From: Alistipes senegalensis
GTDB taxonomy: Bacteria > Bacillota > Clostridia > Oscillospirales > Ruminococcaceae
DNA length: 64,000 nucleotides
Assembly (NCBI GenBank): GCA_023665275.1
Contig: JAMPEF010000001.1
Location: forward strand, 40,924 to 104,923
Direction of reading: 5' to 3'
Both the position numbers and the translations under genes were made by a program. Below, piece by piece: positions 4,323-41,112 of this stretch; position 1 is the stretch's first letter, and every line of letters begins with the position of its first letter. The notes beneath the pieces are model-generated. The model saw only the letters and a list, made by a program, of their open reading frames with translations, was not told the origin of the DNA and made no database searches.

Positions 4323-5510
4323 ATGAACCTTAATGATACCCCGTCCGGTGAAAGAGTTCATATTGGTTTTTTCGGAAAAAGAAACGTCGGAAAATCAAGT
4401 CTTGTCAATGCCGTGACAGGTCAGGAACTTTCTGTAGTATCTGATATAAAAGGTACTACTACAGACCCCGTATCAAAAGCTATGGAATTACTGCCACTCG
4501 GTGCGGTTGTGATTACTGATACCGCTGGTTATGACGATTCCGGAAAACTCGGTGAAATGCGTGTCCGGAAAACAAGACAGATTCTTAACAAAACTGATAT
4601 AGCTGTACTCGTCGTGGACAGCACAACAGGTATTTCCGATTCCGACAATGAACTTATTGAACTATTTAAAAATAAAAATATTCCGTATCTAATCGCCTAC
4701 AATAAATCCGATATTAAAAATGTTCCACGTGGAACAAATGAAATTTCCGTCAGTGCTGTGAATAAACATAACATTCATGAACTGAAAGAAAAAATAGCAA
4801 AACTTTATATTTCTGAAAATAAAAAATTTATCGTCAGAGATTTGATAAATCCGGAAGATGTTATTATACTTGTCACTCCGATAGACGCCGCCGCACCTAA
4901 AGGTCGTTTAATTCTGCCACAACAACAGACTATCCGTGATATTCTTGACTCCGATGCTATGGCTATCGTAACAAAAGAATTTCAGTTAGCTAAAACTCTT
5001 GAAAAATTCCCCACACCGAAAATGGTCATAACAGATAGTCAGGTATTCGGTTACGTCAGCAATATAGTTCCGGAAAATATCCCGCTTACATCGTTTTCCA
5101 TTCTGATGGCTCGTTACAAAGGATTCCTTGAAACAGCCGTAAAAGGTGCGTCGTCTATCCGGAATCTATGTGACGGTGATAAAGTTCTTATCTCTGAAGG
5201 CTGTACGCATCACAGGCAATGCGGTGACATCGGCAGTATTAAACTACCTGCTCTTCTGAAAAAATTTACAGGAAAAATTTTAAATATAGAATTATCCTCC
5301 GGAAGAGATTTTCCTGAAGATTTATCGGAATATAAATTAATTATCCATTGCGGTGGCTGTATGCTTAATCAACGTGAAGTGTCTTTCCGTATGAAATCTG
5401 CTACTGACCAGAACATACCATTTACAAATTACGGAATTGCTATAGCTCTTATGAACGGCATTTTAAAAAGAAGTATTGAAATTTTTCCCGATATGGTGAA
5501 TCTGATATGA
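4323..5510 (+). CDS. hydF: [FeFe]-hydrogenase H-cluster maturation GTPase HydF
   Basis: GFFGKRNVGKSSLVNAVTG P-loop, DTAG, and NKSD GTPase motifs. About 395 aa with a Cys-containing C-terminal domain (CTHHRQCGD ... HCGGC) typical of HydF. Contains an intragenic parS-like palindrome at 4721-4736. Confidence 0.8.
   Translation: MNLNDTPSGERVHIGFFGKRNVGKSSLVNAVTGQELSVVSDIKGTTTDPVSKAMELLPLGAVVITDTAGYDDSGKLGEMRVRKTRQILNKTDIAVLVVDSTTGISDSDNELIELFKNKNIPYLIAYNKSDIKNVPRGTNEISVSAVNKHNIHELKEKIAKLYISENKKFIVRDLINPEDVIILVTPIDAAAPKGRLILPQQQTIRDILDSDAMAIVTKEFQLAKTLEKFPTPKMVITDSQVFGYVSNIVPENIPLTSFSILMARYKGFLETAVKGASSIRNLCDGDKVLISEGCTHHRQCGDIGSIKLPALLKKFTGKILNIELSSGRDFPEDLSEYKLIIHCGGCMLNQREVSFRMKSATDQNIPFTNYGIAIALMNGILKRSIEIFPDMVNLI
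4721..4736. promoter_or_regulatory. Intragenic parS-like perfect palindrome TGTTCCACGTGGAACA inside hydF (encodes NVPRGT)
   Basis: Exact 16-mer identical to the array repeat core. Flanks AA..AA give 18/20 of the 20-mer AATGTTCCACGTGGAACATT. Confidence 0.5.
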
Positions 5511-9049: not shown

Positions 9050-9300
9050 TAAATTGTTCCATGTGGAACATTTTGTGTTTGTCGGTGCGGATTGTTCCAC
9101 GTGGAACATTTTGTGTTCGTTGGTGCGGATTGTTCCACGTGGAACATTTTGTGTTTGTCGGTGAGGATTGTTCCACGTGGAACATTTTATGTTTGTCGGT
9201 GAGGATTGTTCCACGTGGGACATTTTGTGTTTGTCGGTGCGGATTGTTCTACGTGGAACATTTTGTGTTCGTTGGTGCGGATTGTTCCACGTGGAACATT
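9050..9300. repeat. Tandem array 1: 7 copies of parS-like palindrome TGTTCCACGTGGAACA, period about 38 bp
   Basis: 16-mers start at 9056, 9094, 9132, 9170, 9208, 9246, 9284. Four are perfect. Three carry single central changes: CATGTG, CACGTGGG, TACGTG. Spacer GTGTTYGTYGGTGMGGAT is homogeneous. ORF-track ORFs 9014..9349 and 9061..9324 are repeat artefacts. Confidence 0.9.
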
Positions 9301-9354
9301 TTAAAATTTCCAGTAATATTATAAAATCTCCGTGAAATAATATTATCAAGCAAA

Positions 9355-9374
9355 TTGTTCCACGTGGAACATTA
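9355..9374. promoter_or_regulatory. Solitary parS-like palindrome immediately upstream of the spoVAD RBS
   Basis: ATTGTTCCACGTGGAACATT at 9355-9374. The spoVAD GGGAGG RBS starts 3 nt later. Confidence 0.55.
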
Positions 9375-13940: not shown

Positions 13941-14288
13941 AATGTTCCACGTGGAACATTTTCAGGTTTTATACAAGCTGATTGTTCCACGTGGAACATT
14001 TTTCAAGTTTCGTACAAGCTGATTGTTCTACGTGGAACATTTTTCAAGTTTCGTACAGACCGATTGTTCCATGTGGAACATTTTTCAAGTTTCATACAGA
14101 CTGATTGTTCCACGTGGAACATTTTTCAAGTTTCGTACAGACCAATTGTTCCATGTGGAACATTTTTCAAGTTTCATACAGACTGATTGTTCCACGTGGA
14201 ACATTTTTCAAGTTTCGTACAGACTGATTGTTCCGCGTGGAACATTTTTCAAGTTTCGTACAAACCGATTGTTCCATGTGGAACATTT
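13941..14288. repeat. Tandem array 2: 9 copies of parS-like palindrome, period 41 bp
   Basis: 16-mers start at 13943, 13983, 14024, 14065, 14106, 14147, 14188, 14229, 14270. Four are perfect. The others have single central changes (TACGTG, CATGTG x3, CGCGTG). Spacer TTTTCAAGTTTCRTACAGACYGAT. ORF 14023..14367 is an artefact. Confidence 0.9.
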
Positions 14289-14366
14289 TATTTTTTCATT
14301 ACGTAATGAAAGGAATATTATTTTATTTTCCGGCATATTATTCTATGATATTTTGGAGGTGATGTA

Positions 14367-25788: not shown

Positions 25789-26270
25789 AATGTTCCACGT
25801 GGAACATTTTCATGGCACAGACTTTTTATTCTTAATTGTTCCACGTGGAACATTTTTCATGCACAGACTTTTTATTCTTAATTGTTCCACGTGGAACATT
25901 TTCATGGCACAGACTTTTTATTCTTAATTGTTCCACGTGGAACATTTTCATGGCACAGACTTTTTATTCTTAATTGTTCCACGTGGAACATTTTTCATGA
26001 CACAGACTTTTTATTTCTGATTGTTCCACGTGGAACATTTTTCATGCACAGACTTTTTATTCTTAATTGTTCCACGTGGAACATTTTCATGGCACAGACT
26101 TTTTATTCTTAATTGTTCCACGTGGAACATTTTCATGGCACAGACTTTTTATTCTTAATTGTTCCACGTGGAACATTTTTCATGACACAGACTTTTTATT
26201 TCTGATTGTTCCACGTGGAACATTTTCATGACACAGACTTTTTATTCTTAATTGTTCCACGTGGAACATT
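25789..26270. repeat. Tandem array 3: 11 perfect copies of parS-like palindrome, period about 46 bp, filling the soj-noc intergenic region
   Basis: 16-mers start at 25791, 25837, 25883, 25928, 25974, 26021, 26067, 26113, 26159, 26206, 26252. All are exact TGTTCCACGTGGAACA. Spacer TTTTCATGRCACAGACTTTTTATTYYTRAT. ORFs 25673..25927 and 25882..26112 are artefacts. Confidence 0.9.
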
Positions 26271-33914: not shown

Positions 33915-34279
33915 TTTTTCTTCTTTTCACCGGAAAATTTTTCATATATTTTAATTATTTCCGGCACTCCGTATTTTTCCATGTATGCGCAGTAATCCTG
34001 TGATTTCACTTCACATAGCGGACTTCTTGCGACAATTACTATATCCACACCGACGGGTAGTTTTATTTCTGCATTACGGTAAGCAAGCCGTATAAGACGT
34101 TTTGCCCTGTTGCGATGGACTGCATTTCCTATCTTCTTGCTTGCGGTTATACCGAGGCGGTTAAACGGTCTGCCATTCGGTCTCACGTATATAACCGAGT
34201 ACTTACAGGTTGTAAATTTTCCCTTTTTGTAAAGGGTTAAAAAGTCTCTGTTATCATTAAGGATTTCTGTATAAAGCAT
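33911..34279 (-). CDS. rnpA: RNase P protein component
   Basis: 122 aa. RNR motif [14 protein letters not shown]. Position between rpmH and yidD. Confidence 0.85.
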
Positions 34280-34381
34280 AATAATAATACCTCAAAAGCG
34301 GAATTTCTGCACGCCGCCGGAAAAACAAGGGGGGTCATTAACAAAAAAGACCACAAAAAAAGATTTTTGTGGTCAGCCCCG

Positions 34382-34516
34382 TCAGTGAGTTAATCTTGCT
34401 CTGCCCTTAGTTCTTCTGCGAGCCAAAACCTTTCTGCCGTTCTTTGTAGCCATTCTCTTCATGAAGCCATGCTCCTTCTTTCTATGGAGCTTTTTCGGCT
34501 GATATGTTCTTTTCAT
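34382..34516 (-). CDS. rpmH: 50S ribosomal protein L34
   Basis: [44 protein letters not shown] (44 aa) with a GGAGG RBS. The ORF-track entry 34382..34618 is an N-terminal over-extension. Confidence 0.9.
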
Positions 34517-34897
34517 ATTCAGTTCCTCCTCTCTCTGAAATGTATATGAACCTCCGGAACTTCCGGCCAGTCCTGAATGCAAACACAAGCAATGCGGACA
34601 AACCGGCATTGCACCCAATTATTATATAACAAAAAAGATGACATGTCAAGCAGTTTAAGAAATTTTTTTCAGATTTTTATATATTTTTATATTTTTTAAC
34701 TTTAAACATTAAAATTATTTATTATATTCTCCGAAGAAAAAATAGTAAAATTTTGATATAATATATTTTTTAAAATAATTTTTTTAAATTTTAAAAAATC
34801 ACATTATTTTCATTTAATTTAAATATTTTATCCGTCATTTTGTTTAAAAATATGCTGTATTTTAACAAAAATTTTTCAATTTTTTTTGAAAAAAGCC

Positions 34898-34926
34898 TTG
34901 ATTTTTTTTGCCATATATGGTATAAT
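34898..34926 (+). promoter_or_regulatory. dnaA promoter (TTGATT-17-TATAAT)
   Basis: TTGATT at 34898-34903, 17-nt spacer, TATAAT at 34921-34926. About 145 nt upstream of the dnaA ATG, inside the AT-rich rpmH-dnaA oriC-type spacer. Confidence 0.5.
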
Positions 34927-35072
34927 ATTTACAGGAAAGAATTGCTTTTTTTATTGTTTCCTACCGGAACTGAATACAGGTCAGCCGGAGCGGAAAAATA
35001 TACATGAAAACTGTATTTTTTTACGTCTTACCCGGAACAGCTCCGGAAATATCATTAATACGGAGGGAAAAT

Positions 35073-36431
35073 ATGAAATCAACGGAATCATTTGAGGAAG
35101 TCTTTGAAAATGTAAAAGAATACTGCCTTGAAAATAACAAGATTCCCGCAATTGGTCTGAATACATGGATAGCCCCCTTAAGACCTGTAAGCCTTGAGGG
35201 CACAGAGGCACGTTTTAAAATTCAAACGGCGTTTCAACGTGACCTCGTAAAAGAAACTTACGGCAAAATACTTAAAGATGCTTTAAAAGTCATTCTCGGC
35301 TATGAAGTGGAAATGATTATTGATGTTGAACCAAGAAACGCACAGGCTGTTTCTATGAATTTTTATGACCCTGAAAGCAAAAATTCTGAATTTTCAAAAT
35401 ATGAATATACGTTTGATACATTCGTGGAGGGTCGTTCAAATGAATTTGCAGTAGCCTGTTGTAAATCTGTGGCAAAAAACTGCGGTGAAACGCCTGTCCC
35501 TGAATATAATCCGCTGTTTATATATGGTGCTTCAGGTATGGGAAAAACTCACCTTATAACCGCAATTTTAAATGCAGTCCGTGAAAAACACCCTGAATTT
35601 AAAATAATCTACATGACCAGTGAAAATTTTGGAAATGAATTTGTAAAGGCACTTACCGCCAAACGTATGGCGGATTTTCATGAAAAATACCGCTCAACTG
35701 ACTTATTTATTATTGAAGATATACAGTTCTTTATCGGAAAAGAACGAATGCAGGAAGAACTCTTTCATACATTCCATAAACTGCATCAGGAGTGCAAGCA
35801 GATTATAATGACATCTGATAAAGCACCGAAAGAACTGCAAAATCTTGATATACGTCTTTTGACAAGACTTGAAGGCGGTCTTATAGCTGACGTTTCCGCA
35901 CCTGACTATGAAACAAGACTCGCTATAATCAACAGAAAATCAGAACTGCTTGACCTTAAACTTTCCATAGAAGTGGCGGAATTTATAGCAAACCGTCTGA
36001 AATCCAACATAAGACAACTGGAAGGCGCTGTTATGCGCCTGAAAGCACTGAATCACTTCTCCGGAAGTCCCATAACCATATCAATGGCACAGGGAGTTAT
36101 TCGGGACGTTCTAACAAATGAACAGCCAACACCAATAACGGTTGAAAAGATAATTACGGAAGTTTCAGGGGTTTACGGCGTATCTCCGGACGATTTGCGC
36201 TCAAATAAGCGTGCGTCGCAAGTTTCAATAGCAAGAAAAGTGGCTATATATATAATCCGTGCGATAACACAAATGCCACTTGCCGCCATAGGTGAGGAAT
36301 TTGGCGGAAGAGACCACTCAACTATTGTATATTCCATAACAAGCATTACCGAATCTATGAAAAAAGACCCTAATCTTAATAATCTTGTGACAAATATAAT
36401 CAATAACATAAAAGAAAAAAGTAAACTATAG
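35073..36431 (+). CDS. dnaA: Chromosomal replication initiator protein DnaA
   Basis: AAA+ Walker A GASGMGKTHL. C-terminal DNA-binding domain VAIYIIRAITQMPLAAIGEEFGGRDHSTIVYS. Start at MKSTESF (GGAGGG RBS). The ORF-track start at 35004 is over-extended. Confidence 0.95.
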   Translation: MKSTESFEEVFENVKEYCLENNKIPAIGLNTWIAPLRPVSLEGTEARFKIQTAFQRDLVKETYGKILKDALKVILGYEVEMIIDVEPRNAQAVSMNFYDPESKNSEFSKYEYTFDTFVEGRSNEFAVACCKSVAKNCGETPVPEYNPLFIYGASGMGKTHLITAILNAVREKHPEFKIIYMTSENFGNEFVKALTAKRMADFHEKYRSTDLFIIEDIQFFIGKERMQEELFHTFHKLHQECKQIIMTSDKAPKELQNLDIRLLTRLEGGLIADVSAPDYETRLAIINRKSELLDLKLSIEVAEFIANRLKSNIRQLEGAVMRLKALNHFSGSPITISMAQGVIRDVLTNEQPTPITVEKIITEVSGVYGVSPDDLRSNKRASQVSIARKVAIYIIRAITQMPLAAIGEEFGGRDHSTIVYSITSITESMKKDPNLNNLVTNIINNIKEKSKL

Positions 36432-38525
36432 TTCGAAATATGAACACTGAAATCCTGCAAGGAAAATTTTTCACCGGAAAACAATGCATTTATTTTAATA
36501 ATATAGCAAATAATATAATATCTAATATAATATTTAGTGCTTAAACTTTTATTTAAGATATATCTTAATCTTATTTTTTAAATAATATCTTTTATAAGGT
36601 TTGTGCAAATTTACCAAATGGCATTTTTGGCAAAATCGAAAATTTCTGTTAACCATATGCAACATTTTGTAAATAAATTGTAAATAATTATAATTTTTAT
36701 TTAAGTTACAAAAAATTAATACGAATTTTTTTTGTGTACTTTTACTAAAAATTTTTGATGTTTTTATAAAAATAACCTGTTTTTACAAGCTTGTGTAAAT
36801 CTGAATAACGATTTATGCAAAAGAAAATACATAATTTTTATAGATTTATTTTTAACTATTAAACAGATATATTTTATATATTTAATATTTTTTAGGCTTA
36901 AAACAGAAATAAATCAGCAGTAATAAGTTTTAATTAATTATTTTTTGTTTATATTTATGAATTGGATATAATTTTTAATATTTAAAAAACTTGGGTATAC
37001 AATTTGACGGAAAAAATCAGCATTGGCTTCCGGAAAAAATGAAAGTTTGTTCTTAAATTTCTTTAAGAAGTTCCCATCTGGAGTGAAAAAAGTGTGAATT
37101 TGGCTTTTTTTAAAAAATATTGCTATTTTCAATAAAAAATATAACATAACTGTATTTTCCGACAGAAACCGAGAATTTCAAGCAGATTTTAAAATTCTCA
37201 GTAAATATAATAACTCTCAAATTTCCTTTAAAACTGGCATTTATTCAAGATAAATTCATATAAATATACAACAGTCTATTTATTAATAAATTATTAATTG
37301 CCGGCTTTACTCTACAGAAAAACCACAAAATTTTCTGAAAGTTCAAAAAACTTAAATAAAAAGTTTTAATTTATTTTTTTGAAATCCAGTTTTTGAAGTA
37401 AAAAAATTACAATTTTATGGAAATCCTAAAAAATTTACCTTGATTTTTTAGCTGTTTACATGGAAAAAATAATTTATTAAAACTTTAATTTAAGTAAATA
37501 ATTTTCCAATTGTTAACCATAGTTAACATATGAACAAATTATTAAGGGTTCAGATGAACCGATTTGGAATTGTTATTTATTTTAATTTTTATTTTTTATG
37601 ACTTTATTATTAAATTTTTATTTATTTTTAGTTAATTTATAAAAAATATAAATAAATTATCCCATTAAAAATCACTAAATATAGCTACAAAAAATAAGTA
37701 AATAAATATAACTTTCTTTTTATGATGATTTAGTGTTTAAATTGTGAAATTATCAATTATGAACTAAATATGTATTTTTTATGAACAATTGCCGTAACGA
37801 AAAATAGCCAAAAAATCGATATCAACTACCTCTTAAATGCCGTTTTTGTGTAATAAATCACGAAAAAACGTTACATGGCAATATGCACAAACAACTTTTG
37901 TGAAAATTAAATTTTAGGCTTAATATAGCGGTTTTTTAAGATACAATATTTTTAAAGAGTACTTTTGTTCTCTGAAAAACGTTGTTTTATAACGATTTTC
38001 GGCATAAACGAATATTCTTTAAAATTTTTAATATTTAAAAAATACCGTTCATAATTTAGACATAATCAGAATATACGTTCTGTTTTGGTCGGAAAAAGAT
38101 AAAAAATTCATGTTATCCCTCGCCTGTTTTTGCCTAAATATAGGTAAAATCAGGTAGACATTGAACGAAATAACAATATACCAAAAGTTTTCAACAAAAA
38201 GAACGTAAGTTCTCAAAATTTTGTTAGATTAATGTTTGCTTTTTGATTTTCACAGTTCCAACACAAAACATGTTTCACTATCAACAGTTTATCAACATTA
38301 ATTTTGTTGAATTATCTATACAAAATATAGCCGTAAAACAAAACTTTCAACTTTTTATTCTCACTTAATTAAGAGTACTAATTTATTATTTATTTATTAT
38401 TTACGCGCCGCTAAAAAAATTCTGAAAAACAAAAAATTTGCAATTCTTGATTTTCAGAATCAAAAAATCAAAAAAAAATTATTATCAATTGTTACCAAAT
38501 TATGAATACAGGAGGAATTTTCAAA
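36432..38525. other. About 2.1-kb ORF-free, extremely AT-rich dnaA-dnaN spacer (putative extended oriC / DNA-unwinding region)
   Basis: No ORF of 60 aa or more apart from an RBS-less 69-aa antisense ORF. Only degenerate DnaA-box-like 9-mers found by eye (TTATCAACA about 38290, TTATCCCTC about 38113). GTTAAC inverted repeat at 37511-37528. Confidence 0.4.
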
Positions 38526-39626
38526 ATGAAATTCATTTGTAACAAATCAGAACTTTGTGAAGCTATCAGCAATGTTTCAAGAGCTGTATCTCCAAAGTCA
38601 GCTATTCCAGCACTTGAAGGAATTAAAGTCAAAGTTTCACCAAACGAAATTGAACTTATAGGATATAATCTTGAAATGGGTATCCGTACGGCTATTAATT
38701 CCATAACAGAAGATTCAGGAGAGTTTGTCGTAAGTGCAAGACTATTCAATGAATTTACAAAACGTATGTCAGGTGACGAAATTAATTTTGAGGTTAATGA
38801 AAATCTTGTAATCAATATTTCATGCAGTTCTACAGAATGTAGTTTTTCTGCAATGTCAGCAGAAGAATATCCGGACTTACCAGCAGTAGATTCTGAAAAT
38901 ACTTTCACTGTAAAAAATTCAGTTCTGAAATCCATGATTAATCAGACAAGTTATGCGGCATCTCTTAATGAAAGCAAACCAATTCTTACAGGCGAATTAT
39001 TCGACATTGCAGATGAAAAATTCAATATGGTTGCAATTGATGGTTTCAGACTTGCAATAAGAAGTGAAACTATAAATAATTCCGGAAAATATCAGTTTGT
39101 AGTTCCTAAAAAAGCTCTGCTTGAATTATCTTCCCTTATAAAAGATGACAGTGACTGCATTATTCATACAAACGAAAGACACATAATATTTGAAACAGGA
39201 AATGTATTCATAATTTCAAGACTTTTAGAAGGAACTTTCCATAAATATAAATTAAGTATACCTGCCGACCACAAAACAGAAATTATTATCAGTAAACGTG
39301 AATTTCTTACAGGTCTGGAAAGATGTTCACTGATTATTGATGAAAAAAATAAAACTCCCATTCACTGTGAGGCTGGTAAAGGTTTCGTAAATCTTAACTG
39401 CAAAACCGGAATAGGAAAAATAAGCGATTCAATAAAAGCTGACATTACAGGTGAAAATGTTATTATCGGATTTAACCATAAACTTATGGCTGATGCTGTA
39501 CGTGCAGCTGATGGTGATAAAATCCGCATACTTTTTAATGGCTCAAAAAAAGTTATAGAAATTCTTCCGCTTGAAAGTGAAAGCTTTATATTTCTCGTTA
39601 TGCCCATAAACCTCAAGAATTATTAA
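38526..39626 (+). CDS. dnaN: DNA polymerase III beta sliding clamp
   Basis: MKFICNKSELCEAISNVSRAV is a typical DnaN N-terminus. 366 aa. GGAGGA RBS. Confidence 0.9.
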   Translation: MKFICNKSELCEAISNVSRAVSPKSAIPALEGIKVKVSPNEIELIGYNLEMGIRTAINSITEDSGEFVVSARLFNEFTKRMSGDEINFEVNENLVINISCSSTECSFSAMSAEEYPDLPAVDSENTFTVKNSVLKSMINQTSYAASLNESKPILTGELFDIADEKFNMVAIDGFRLAIRSETINNSGKYQFVVPKKALLELSSLIKDDSDCIIHTNERHIIFETGNVFIISRLLEGTFHKYKLSIPADHKTEIIISKREFLTGLERCSLIIDEKNKTPIHCEAGKGFVNLNCKTGIGKISDSIKADITGENVIIGFNHKLMADAVRAADGDKIRILFNGSKKVIEILPLESESFIFLVMPINLKNY

Positions 39627-39787
39627 TCTGTTCTTCCAAAACAAGCAGAATACTAGATACAGAAGTAATAATGAAAAATACGGTATTCTGCTTGCTTTTT
39701 ACTGAATTTTATGATATAATTTATTTATGGCTTTAAAAAGCTGTGAATCATAAAAAATCGTTTTTAAAGACGTGAAAGGTTAATATA

Positions 39788-39997
39788 ATGGCAGAAAAAA
39801 TCAAAATAAAAACTGAATTTATCAAGCTGGAAGCATTAATGAAATATGCATCACTTGTAAATTCAGGTGGTGAGGCTAAAATGCTTATTCAGGATGGACA
39901 GGTTTCCGTAAATGATGAAGTATGCACTATGCGAGGTAAAAAAATACGTTCCGGAGATAAAGTCTCTTTCAATAAAAAAGAGGTAGTTGTGGAGTGA
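39788..39997 (+). CDS. yaaA: S4-domain RNA-binding protein YaaA
   Basis: 69 aa. Conserved dnaN-yaaA-recF synteny. S4-like [14 protein letters not shown]. Confidence 0.8.
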
Positions 39998-41112
39998 TTA
40001 TCACTTACGCTGGAATTGAAGGTTTCCGGAATCTTTCCAGAATAGAAATAAATCCCGACCCGAAATATAATATTATCTCCGGACTAAATGCACAGGGAAA
40101 AACCAATCTTCTTGAGGCTTTATGGATTATGTCAGGTTGTAAAAGTTTCAGGTCTTCCCGTGAAAAAGATTATATTTCACTCTACGGAAATAAAATGATT
40201 GCTGAAATCAGTATTCTTGACAATATCCGTGAACACAAAATACGTACTGAAATTTCACGTGGAAACAACATAAAAAACATAACTCTTAACGGCGTGAAAC
40301 AAAAAGGTTCTAAATCTCTTTTTGATGTCTTCCGGTGCATTGCATTCATACCCGATGATGTGGATATCATTAAAGGTTCGCCCGAAAAAAGAAGAAATTT
40401 CATAGATATGGCGTCTTCTCAGTTAAACCCATCATCTGTTCTGCACCTTAACCGCCATAACAGAATTATAAATCAGCGCAATGCTCTGCTGAAAGAAATC
40501 ATGAATGGCAGTACAAAACCCGATATTCTCAGAACTATAGACAGACAAACCGCCGAAGAAGGTGCTTTTATTTCTTATATGCGTCATGATTACGTCGAAA
40601 GAATAAACCATATATGTGGTGATTTATATCGTACTCTTTCCGGTGGAAATGAAAATCTTGAACTTGAATATAAATCAAACGTCTATAAGCCAGAAAACTT
40701 TAAAAAGCCTTTAAATTCTGAATCCGCTGAAATTTATTTCAGAAAATTACAGGAAACTTCAAGTTATGACATCAAAACAGGTACTACACATATGGGCGTA
40801 AACCGTGACGAAATTCTGATAAAAATAAATGGTCTGAGTGCAAAAGAATACGCATCACAAGGACAGATAAAAAGCACTGCACTTGTAATGAAACTTGCAC
40901 AGGCGGAAATTTTCATGGAAAAATCAGACGATTCACCGGTCATTTTCCTTGATGACGTCATGGGTGAACTCGACGAAAAAAGACAGAAATTTATTTTTGA
41001 TATTATCCGTAATATGCAGGTTTTTATTACCACGTGTAACGAAAGTTCATTACTTCCGGAAATAAAAGGAAAAATTTTTCATATACACGACGGAAAACTT
41101 ACCGAAGAATAA
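39994..41112 (+). CDS. recF: DNA replication and repair protein RecF
   Basis: [13 protein letters not shown] Walker A. Signature and Walker B ([11 protein letters not shown]). 372 aa. Confidence 0.9.

Follow-up and report, generated by a model that had tools for sequence, protein, structure and literature searches.

An expanded, AT-rich and DnaA-box-poor dnaA-dnaN spacer as a probable lineage-specific variant of the bacterial chromosome origin

Bacterial chromosome origins are usually found and modelled through their clusters of DnaA-boxes. Arrays outside the minimal origin, such as datA in E. coli and the DnaA-box clusters of B. subtilis, titrate or regulate DnaA, and other origin-binding regulators have oriC sites of their own, among them Spo0A at the 0A-boxes of B. 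subtilis, CtrA in Caulobacter and SeqA, IHF and Fis in E. coli. Within the origin, an architecture of DnaA-boxes, DnaA-trios and an AT-rich element, the basal unwinding system (BUS), has been described for B. subtilis and predicted widely (PMC6669920, PMC8287927), and species-specific DnaA-boxes are on record as TTTTCCACA in cyanobacteria and as a 12-mer in Thermotoga (PMC6323995, PMC10225481). Here we analyse the spacer between dnaA and dnaN (positions 36432-38525) in a stretch of 64,000 nucleotides from contig JAMPEF010000001.1 of assembly GCA_023665275.1, the whole of which is called the window. We read the interval as a lineage-specific variant of the bacterial origin, and not as an insertion, an RNA gene or a gene that was missed. 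Judged from sequence comparison, and with a probability that we put at about 0.6, it represents the dnaA-dnaN half of the chromosomal origin, expanded to ~2 kb in one lineage with the loss of nearly all its DnaA-boxes, where an unwinding core would persist near dnaN and TTATGAAC sites would bind another protein.

The spacer is bounded by the dnaA stop codon, a TAG ending at 36431, and by the dnaN ATG at 38526, limits that give 2094 bp and agree with the ~2.1 kb reported by a sequence-only reading of the same DNA. Its GC content is 21.7%, compared with 37.1% for the whole window, and among all gaps of the window it is by far the largest and the most AT-rich. The dnaA gene lies at 35070-36431 on the + strand (a start of the open reading frame (ORF) at 35004 is possible, and the start MKSTESFEE... 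at 35070 agrees with relatives), and dnaN, encoding the beta clamp, lies at 38526-39626 on the same strand, preceded by AGGAGG at 38510-38515. The cumulative G-C curve of the window reaches its minimum at 38613 within a flat floor spanning 34731-39712, and the - strand carries every long frame between 22.7 and 33.6 kb and the + strand every one between 35.0 and 47.4 kb, the switch falling at the rpmH|dnaA junction. Because the skew minimum and the gene-strand switch fall at this locus, the origin is placed here, at dnaA-dnaN and not elsewhere as the sequence-only reading had allowed for. The gene order around it is rnpA-rpmH-dnaA-dnaN-yaaA-recF-remB-gyrBA.

By its DnaA and DnaN sequences, the window is assigned to a rumen Ruminococcus lineage (Oscillospiraceae) known almost only from metagenome-assembled genomes (MAGs). 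Its DnaN is 73% identical to that of R. flavefaciens and 98% identical to that of L171 (related loci are cited by such numbers). Among ~45 related loci, spacers range from 234 to 2132 bp and most measure 0.3-0.8 kb (0.23-0.8 kb covers most of the family, and R. flavefaciens isolates have 466 bp). The longer ones reach 1150 bp in L014, ~1.2 kb in L006, L007, L012 and L043, 1526 bp in L175-177, at least 1265 bp in L184, at least 1453 bp in the MAG that contributed L002 and L182, 1906 bp in L172 and 2132 bp in L003. The unusual length pointed out in the sequence-only reading therefore holds against the family, but it is not unique, since species-level relatives have spacers of 1.9-2.1 kb, as long as that of the window. 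In a neighbour-joining tree of DnaN, the window, L171, L003, L172 and L002/L182 form one clade, with L175, L184, L173 and L181 as its sister clade and R. flavefaciens outside both; tree and lengths together indicate that the long spacer is a shared derived trait of the two sister clades.

Over most of the spacer, substitutions have accumulated approximately as fast as at neutral sites, or faster. Spacer identity of the window to L003 is 0.61, compared with 0.51 for a shuffled control and 0.61-0.64 at 4-fold sites, whereas the flanking coding sequence shows 83-87% identity and the rpmH-dnaA intergenic region (34620-35069) 85%, a conservation on a par with coding DNA. With L171, spacer identity is 0.72-0.76, compared with 0.83 at 4-fold sites. 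The spacer as a whole thus diverges at approximately the rate of synonymous sites, and because of this nearly neutral drift the distal ~1.75 kb is read as having no sequence-specific role over most of its length. Its length was nevertheless kept across both sister clades (2094, 2132, 1906, at least 1453, 1526 and at least 1265 bp, compared with 466 bp in R. flavefaciens). That 1.3-2.1 kb was held despite neutral-rate substitution suggests selection on length, spacing or AT-richness, and the retained DNA may, for example, form a platform that is architectural or duplex-destabilised, or insulate the unwinding site from transcription of dnaA.

The sequence that DnaA would recognize in this family was sought de novo by pooled k-mer discovery in 40 related dnaA-dnaN spacers. 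The word TTTCAACA occurred 137 times where 8 were expected and was present in 34 of the 40 loci; TTTCCACA occurred 61 times (4.6 expected), and TAGTAGTA/TACTACTA 42 times (0.8 expected), followed by a G/C run (GGGG/CCCC). On these counts the DnaA-box of the Oscillospiraceae family is TTTTC(A/C)ACA, not the canonical TTATCCACA, with TTTTCAACA (A at position 6) as its major and TTTTCCACA as its minor variant, and the family layout is box(es)-CCCC-(TAC)n-AT-rich, 110-240 nt upstream of dnaN. The reading helix in domain IV of the window DnaA is GGRDHSTIVYS, compared with RDHTTV(I/L)HA in B. subtilis, E. coli and Aquifex; all DnaAs of the family carry RDH(S/A)T(I/V)VY, and the proline aligned with E. 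coli P423 is displaced. We take T435, H439 and P423 of E. coli DnaA to be base-contacting residues, and what was checked here is their alignment. In the dnaA 3' ends and dnaA-dnaN spacers of L001-L048, L172, L175 and L178, the helix variant and the TTTTC(A/C)ACA box occur together, which is a correlation in the compared sequences. Because of this box and the altered helix, scans with the canonical box, as in origin finders, will mis-score the whole family. Among the species-specific boxes in the DoriC/Ori-Finder literature TTTTCAACA was not found (PMC6323995, PMC10225481), and together with the DnaA helix variant it is new as far as the literature searched goes. The trio sequence itself differs within the genus: the R. 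flavefaciens module (L178 5915-5950) has TTTTCCACC followed by the seven NAN triplets CAC AAT AAC AAC AAC AAT AAT, a CAA/TAA type and not (TAC)n.

Measured with this box, the window spacer is poor in DnaA-boxes. It holds three copies with at most one mismatch, compared with 6.5 expected from shuffles, or 1.4 per kb; corresponding densities are 3.8 per kb in L003, 4.7 in L172 and 0.8 in L002, and almost every other spacer of the family has 8-36 per kb. The density of box arrays in the family (at least 8 per kb) is thus not reached, and no box cluster was found anywhere in the 64-kb window. When the spacers of the window's clade were pooled, the family box was weakly enriched (12 copies, 3.4 expected). 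Of the canonical box there are 21 copies at up to one mismatch in 64 kb where 20.5 were expected, no perfect copy, and a single one-mismatch copy in the spacer. The sequence-only reading had seen only a few weak boxes by eye, and the near-absence of canonical boxes stands; the canonical box is, however, the wrong test, since the family uses TTTTC(A/C)ACA and not TTATCCACA, and this box, with the altered reading helix, partly explains the small number seen. Canonical boxes are sparse in the spacers of all relatives too.

The sister clade differs sharply in this respect. L175 holds 31 boxes (20.3 per kb) and L184 holds 28 in 1265 bp (22.1 per kb), arranged in a 42-nt module, TTTTCMACA-ga-CTTTCAACA-ctaaactaacagg-TTTTCAACA, that repeats approximately every 229 bp, and also as sets of five boxes placed head to tail at an 11-nt period (L175 4475-6000, L184 1-1265). 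An array of this kind may act as a platform or a sink for DnaA within the origin itself. In the window's clade no convincing remnant of the 42-nt module was found, a weak match lying at 38242-38301 (E 0.08). Because short-spacer outgroups keep 5-12 boxes and a clean trio array, the poverty of the window in boxes and trios is taken as derived. That one clade has 30-box arrays and its sister box-poor spacers is new as far as the literature searched goes.

Within the spacer, only the last ~340 bp before dnaN have the look of a working origin core. With a position weight matrix built from boxes outside the window's clade, seven matches were found in 165 bp (38188-38352), six of the seven on the + strand, compared with six matches in the other 1.75 kb of the spacer. 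The weak cluster comprises TTTTCAACA at 38188, ATTTTCACA at 38246, GTTCCAACA at 38255, CTATCAACA at 38278, TTATCAACA at 38289 and CTTTCAACT at 38344, all on the + strand, and AATTCAACA at 38305 on the - strand. The motifs TTTTCAC and T.TC(A/C)ACA, representing two boxes, are invariant in four genomes (the window, L171, L003 and L172). The last box, at 38344, lies 181 nt from dnaN, similar to the distances in L175 (181/172 nt), L184 (~178 nt) and L003 (195 nt). Fourteen nucleotides past it a trio-like run of five NAN triplets, AAT TAA GAG TAC TAA, occupies 38367-38381 on the + strand; this run aligns with AAT TAC TAA TAC TAA AAA in L003 and takes the place of (TAC)n/(CTA)n in L175, L184 and L173. 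An AT-rich element directly past the trios, as in the BUS, is found at 38374-38403. This candidate unwinding element ranks among the spacer's five least stable 30-mers and is identical to L171 at 36 of 38 positions, in a region that averages 76%. It is bounded by the GC cluster CGCGCCGC at 38404-38411, and a CGCGC-type boundary recurs in L171, L003, L172, L182 and L184.

The elements common to the window, L171, L003 and L172 are therefore TTTTCAC, T.TC(A/C)ACA, ACTA, the AT-rich run and the CGCGC cluster, and L184 presents the undegraded form of the same layout, including a CGCGCGC block after the AT-rich run. By these alignments, a positionally homologous but degenerate unwinding module probably survives beside dnaN. 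Its size lends nothing to the idea of an expanded unwinding element put forward in the sequence-only reading, the candidate AT-rich run being ordinary in size (~27-30 nt at 38374-38403). Of the motifs picked out in that reading, TTATCAACA (38289-38297), TTATCCCTC (38113-38121) and the inverted repeat GTTAAC-CATA-GTTAAC (37512-37527) are all present, but the last two are not conserved in relatives. A further element, ATGTT(T/G)CAC at 38271-38286, stands just before the CTATCAACA box and is invariant in the window, L171, L003 and L172; it resembles a parS half-site, with three mismatches to the full parS.

Farther from dnaN, conservation is confined to small islands. The filler at 36432-37520 contains several of the least stable 30-mers (36508, 36865 and 36670), and no block in it is kept in all three full-length relatives except a weak A/T block at 37097-37127. 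Beyond this block, the three-way comparison gave island A (37525-37564), island B (37744-37767) and the dnaN leader (38482-38525); it missed site C, which was added by pairwise and four-way alignments. Islands A and B, site C and the leader all contain TTATGAA(C/T), a motif that does not figure in the sequence-only reading. Island A, which extends over 37525-37600 on the + strand, comprises TATGAAC at 37529-37535, AAATTGTAAAG, the dyad GTTCAGATGAAC at 37548-37559, CGATT and GTTATTTATTTTAA...TTTTTATGAC. The window shares this island with L003, L172, L002 and L175, and L184 has a related copy. The dyad is GTTCATATGAAC in relatives and GAACATATGTTT in L175, where two positions changed on both sides and the symmetry around CATATG was retained. 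Since the consensus fold of island A is a hairpin of only 4 bp (-2 kcal/mol), a dimeric protein site is favoured over an RNA. Island B (37744-37815, + strand) comprises GTGAAATT, two direct TTATGAAC copies (37757-37764 and 37779-37786) and GTAACG-AAAATAG-CAAAAA; the TTATGAAC pair is spaced by exactly 22 nt in the window, L003 and L172. Site C (38045-38057) reads CCGTTCATAATTT, or AAATTATGAACGG on the - strand where the motif lies, with an A-run preceding, and is kept in the window, L171, L003, L175, L184 and L173 at about -470 to -580 from dnaN. The leader reads TCAATTGTTACCAAA-TTATGAAT (38500-38507)-AC-AGGAGG (38510-15) on the + strand, and its site AAATTATGAA(C/T) is kept in both sister clades (the window, L171, L003, L172, L182, L175, L181 and L184).

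The shared motif is strongly enriched. TATGAAC occurs five times in the window spacer (0.38 expected) and seven times in that of L003 (0.46 expected), and pooled over the clade it is by far the top motif, with 23 occurrences against 1.5 expected in six of six sequences. The sites lie at about -975, -747/-725, -470 and -25 from dnaN in the window, L003 and L172, three genomes in which neutral sites have reached saturation, and island A, site C and the leader site stand in the same order in L175 and L184 among ~30 ordinary boxes. R. flavefaciens lacks the motif, as do almost all other spacers of the family. To our knowledge (A)AATTATGAAC matches none of the consensus sequences of the 0A-box (TGTCGAA), parS (TGTTNCACGTGAAACA), the Cheo box (GAAC-N4-GTTC) and the CtrA site (TTAA-N7-TTAA), and the TTATGAAC islands are new as far as the literature searched goes. 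Two identities were considered for the island A dyad and rejected: GTTCAGATGAAC is unrelated to the parS sequence TGTTNCACGTGAAACA, which abounds elsewhere in the window as TGTTCCACGTGGAACA while the spacer has only the three-mismatch match at 38271, and a LexA (Cheo box) site is not formed, the dyad being GTTC-N4-GAAC, the inverse of GAAC-N4-GTTC. As a separate observation, TCCGGAA/TTCCGGA (e.g. CTTCCGGAAAAAA, 37024-37040) ranks second in enrichment among the GC-containing words of the box-poor clade's spacers, with 10 occurrences against 1.6 expected in four of six sequences.

The enrichment of TATGAAC, the only motif strongly enriched where boxes are missing, raises the question of whether the TTATGAAC sites are themselves specialised or low-affinity DnaA-boxes of this clade that replaced the TTTTCAACA arrays, leaving the distal kilobase a DnaA-assembly platform. 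We consider this unlikely, though it deserves to be taken seriously: TTATGAACA differs from TTTTCAACA at positions 3 and 5 only, with the canonical base A at position 3, the 7-nt cores TATGAAC and TTTCAAC share their register (positions 2-8), and the two direct copies in island B are 22 nt apart, just as boxes in the L175 modules are spaced by 11/22 nt, while two mismatches fall within the published box criterion (PMC8287927). However, TATGAAC is missing from almost all other family spacers with the same DnaA reading helix, and in L175 and L184 it stands beside ~30 ordinary boxes as a separate, positionally conserved class. Even in the window's clade, boxes beside the unwinding module still belong to the TTTC(A/C)AC type; conservation of the TTATGAAC sites reaches to their 5' side (AAATT) and not to position 9 as in the family box matrix; and the island A dyad would have to accommodate two 9-mers with a 4-bp overlap. 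Coexistence with normal boxes in the sister clade, retention of TTTC(A/C)AC boxes at the module and the 5'-side conservation thus lead us to read the sites as binding a protein other than ordinary high-affinity DnaA. A bolder proposal, and a rather doubtful one, is that initiation in this clade no longer relies on a DnaA-box array, that the (A)AATTATGAAC sites are the operative origin-recognition elements, read either by a DnaA of shifted preference or by another origin-binding protein, and that the long AT tract acts as a sequence-independent melting or architectural platform.

Returning to a spacer with an unwinding core near dnaN and sites for another protein, we would picture initiation as follows. 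The weak family-type boxes (38188-38352) would recruit DnaA, which from the 38344 box might extend along the trio-like run at 38367-38381 and open the adjacent AT-rich 27-mer (to 38403), bounded by CGCGCCGC. The module would be a degenerate version of the box-GC-(TAC)n-AT-rich unwinding module of the relatives, at the same distance from dnaN. The remaining ~1.75 kb would be kept long and extremely AT-rich, with four or five (A)AATTATGAAC sites at fixed distances from dnaN, and a sequence-specific protein bound there could modulate initiation, dnaN transcription or both.

Several points weigh against this reading. The proximal cluster is weak, with one perfect box only, and the proximal region was not scored as conserved in the three-way alignment at a threshold of at least 72%. 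The 38344 box is not kept in the nearest relative, L171 having TTTTAAACT at that place and TTTTCAACG beside it. The published BUS rule calls for a box with at most two mismatches, a spacer of 0-16 bp and at least three NAN trios on the box strand (PMC8287927); the 38344 site has two mismatches, a 14-bp spacer and five trios, but 106 of 300 Markov shuffles also match within 400 nt of dnaN. The rule is therefore not discriminating in 78% A+T DNA, and the module is assigned by positional homology alone. Being two mismatches from the family box, TTATGAACA could by the operational criterion count as a DnaA-box. The phylogeny is a single-gene neighbour-joining tree and only indicative, and retention of length could stem from weak deletion pressure instead of function.

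The AT-richness and lack of coding potential described by the sequence-only reading were borne out. The longest ORFs within the spacer with ATG, GTG or TTG starts encode 69 and 55 aa, and the longest stop-to-stop frames run to 79, 77, 64 and 59 codons, the 79-codon frame being of low complexity; none of these frames has a Pfam match and none is kept in relatives, whose long spacers share no ORFs of the kind that might have exposed a missed gene. Scanning 34000-39500 with Rfam 15 in E-value mode gave two chance-level matches only, far under the gathering scores, and no tRNA or tmRNA was found in the spacer. A search of metagenomes with the 17-mer GTTCAKATGAACCGATT returned 120 matches, all attributable to chance, none of them carrying dnaA or dnaN or resembling the spacer, and in an exact-protein look-up the DnaA protein made from either of the two start codons was not on record.

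It is also conceivable, though improbable, that the spacer is transcribed as a long dnaN 5' leader, a non-coding RNA or both, with the islands acting as promoter or RNA elements. Transcription near origins can influence initiation, and a promoter-like TTAATA-16-CATAAT at 38028-38055 reads towards dnaN, overlaps site C and has a TTAAT-type -35 at the aligned place in relatives, while no terminator-like site follows dnaA in the spacer. Against this, promoter-like matches in the spacer were not above chance (31, compared with 25.9 expected from shuffles), nothing was matched in Rfam, the island A consensus folds only into the short hairpin described above, and the motif occurs in both orientations. 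Terminator-like sites in the spacer, for their part, were no commoner than in shuffles. A structured RNA is unlikely because of the 22% GC content and the neutral-rate drift. The sequence-only reading's suggestion of non-coding RNAs thus met with nothing in Rfam and with a sole consensus structure of 4 bp.

That reading had also raised a decayed insertion, i.e. a gene, mobile element or prophage remnant eroded between dnaA and dnaN, which we hold to be very improbable. Insertions do occur at this site, since L006, L007, L012 and L043 carry a DUF2726 gene there (169 aa, ~7382-7890 in L006, Pfam E 7.8e-27, likewise in the other three) that accounts for their ~1.2-kb spacers, and AT-richness is typical of foreign DNA. 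In the window spacer, however, there is no ORF remnant and no Pfam match; a distant blastn search of 50,697 phage and 72,556 plasmid records gave no similarity; and terminal repeats are lacking, the repeats seen being low-complexity A/T matches only. No gene was called in the long spacers of relatives outside the DUF2726 group, and the long spacer of the sister clade is built of box modules, not foreign genes, with the islands in the same order. In L006-type spacers a box cluster and trios lie downstream of the DUF2726 gene. Elsewhere near the origin, a Y1 transposase gene (IS200/IS605-type, PF01797) stands between a remA-like gene and gyrB in L178 (9067-9474) and L180 (4864-5385), and not in L179.

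A misassembly or chimeric join in an AT-rich, low-coverage region would also yield an odd spacer, and at least nine short-read contigs of the lineage end inside it (L001, L002, L182, L049, L050, L171, L173, L181 and L184, with L002 and L182 being two contig ends of one MAG, GCA_029055625.1), as do L174 and L185. We regard this as scarcely credible. Two other assemblies of the same strain, L049 and L050, are 100% identical to the window over 36880-41000 and 37808-41000, which takes in 1.65 and 0.72 kb of the spacer and shows that it is not an assembly artefact; being the same strain, they serve as sequence confirmation only and are useless for footprinting. In L003 and L172, moreover, a single contig covers the whole of a spacer of this size, and the order of the islands is identical. 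The contig ends lie at varied positions, which points to coverage loss in AT-rich DNA and not to a repeat, and the fragmentation of this origin in MAGs is probably coverage loss in DNA of 20-25% GC. Short-read MAGs of the lineage almost always break in the spacer, so that the origin is systematically missing from them.

On the other side of dnaA, the rpmH-dnaA intergenic region contains no box cluster, and the 400 bp upstream of dnaA show no box enrichment. This region carries a perfect TTGACA-17-TATAAT at 34649-34621 on the - strand, pointing to rpmH, and a TG-extended TTGATT-17-TATAAT at 34898-34926, pointing to dnaA. Farther left are three tandem arrays at 9053-9371, 13943-14289 and 25791-26270, with units of 38, 41 and 46 nt in ~7-9, 9 and 11 copies; every unit includes TGTTCCACGTGGAACA, a perfect parS-type palindrome of 16 bp, and single sites lie at 4721, 20560, 21913 and 29867. 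In all, ~33 parS sites lie in intergenic gaps within 30 kb left of dnaA (70 strand-matches, 3 expected). The tandem arrangement is unusual, because parS sites are normally dispersed singles.

The related loci form a natural series at one place in the genome: short and box-rich in R. flavefaciens, long with ~30-box arrays in the sister clade, and long and box-poor, with degenerate trios and a new motif, in the window's clade. Direct comparison along this series bears on the number and kind of boxes that are needed, on the purpose of the long arrays and on what else is able to bind an origin.

Set beside known systems, the spacer shares with the bipartite oriC of Firmicutes (B. subtilis incC, C. 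difficile oriC2) its place between dnaA and dnaN at the skew switch, but its length exceeds the usual by a factor of 4-20, it uses the box TTTTC(A/C)ACA and not TTATCCACA, its box density is at or below chance, and no box cluster lies upstream of dnaA. Its dnaN-proximal order, with boxes leading toward a trio-like run, a ~27-nt AT-rich run and a GC cluster, is like that of the BUS (PMC6669920, PMC8287927, PMC7561715), and relatives carry textbook versions at the same distance from dnaN; in the window, however, the trios are AAT TAA GAG TAC TAA instead of (TAC)n, and the GC cluster follows the AT-rich run and does not stand between box and trios. Like the cyanobacterial box TTTTCCACA, which is the minor variant here, the family box has T for A at position 3; in contrast to the cyanobacterial and Thermotoga boxes, the major variant TTTTCAACA has A at position 6 and goes with RDH-S-TIV-Y instead of RDH-T-TV(I/L)-H. 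The L175 and L184 spacers, with ~30 boxes in 42-nt modules, resemble datA and the DnaA-box clusters of B. subtilis and are a plausible DnaA sink or platform, whereas the window lacks the boxes and only length, AT-richness and the TTATGAAC islands remain. In this last respect the window motif is like the sites of Spo0A, CtrA and SeqA, IHF and Fis: it is short, is not a DnaA-box, and is present in few copies at kept positions, one of them dyad-symmetric.

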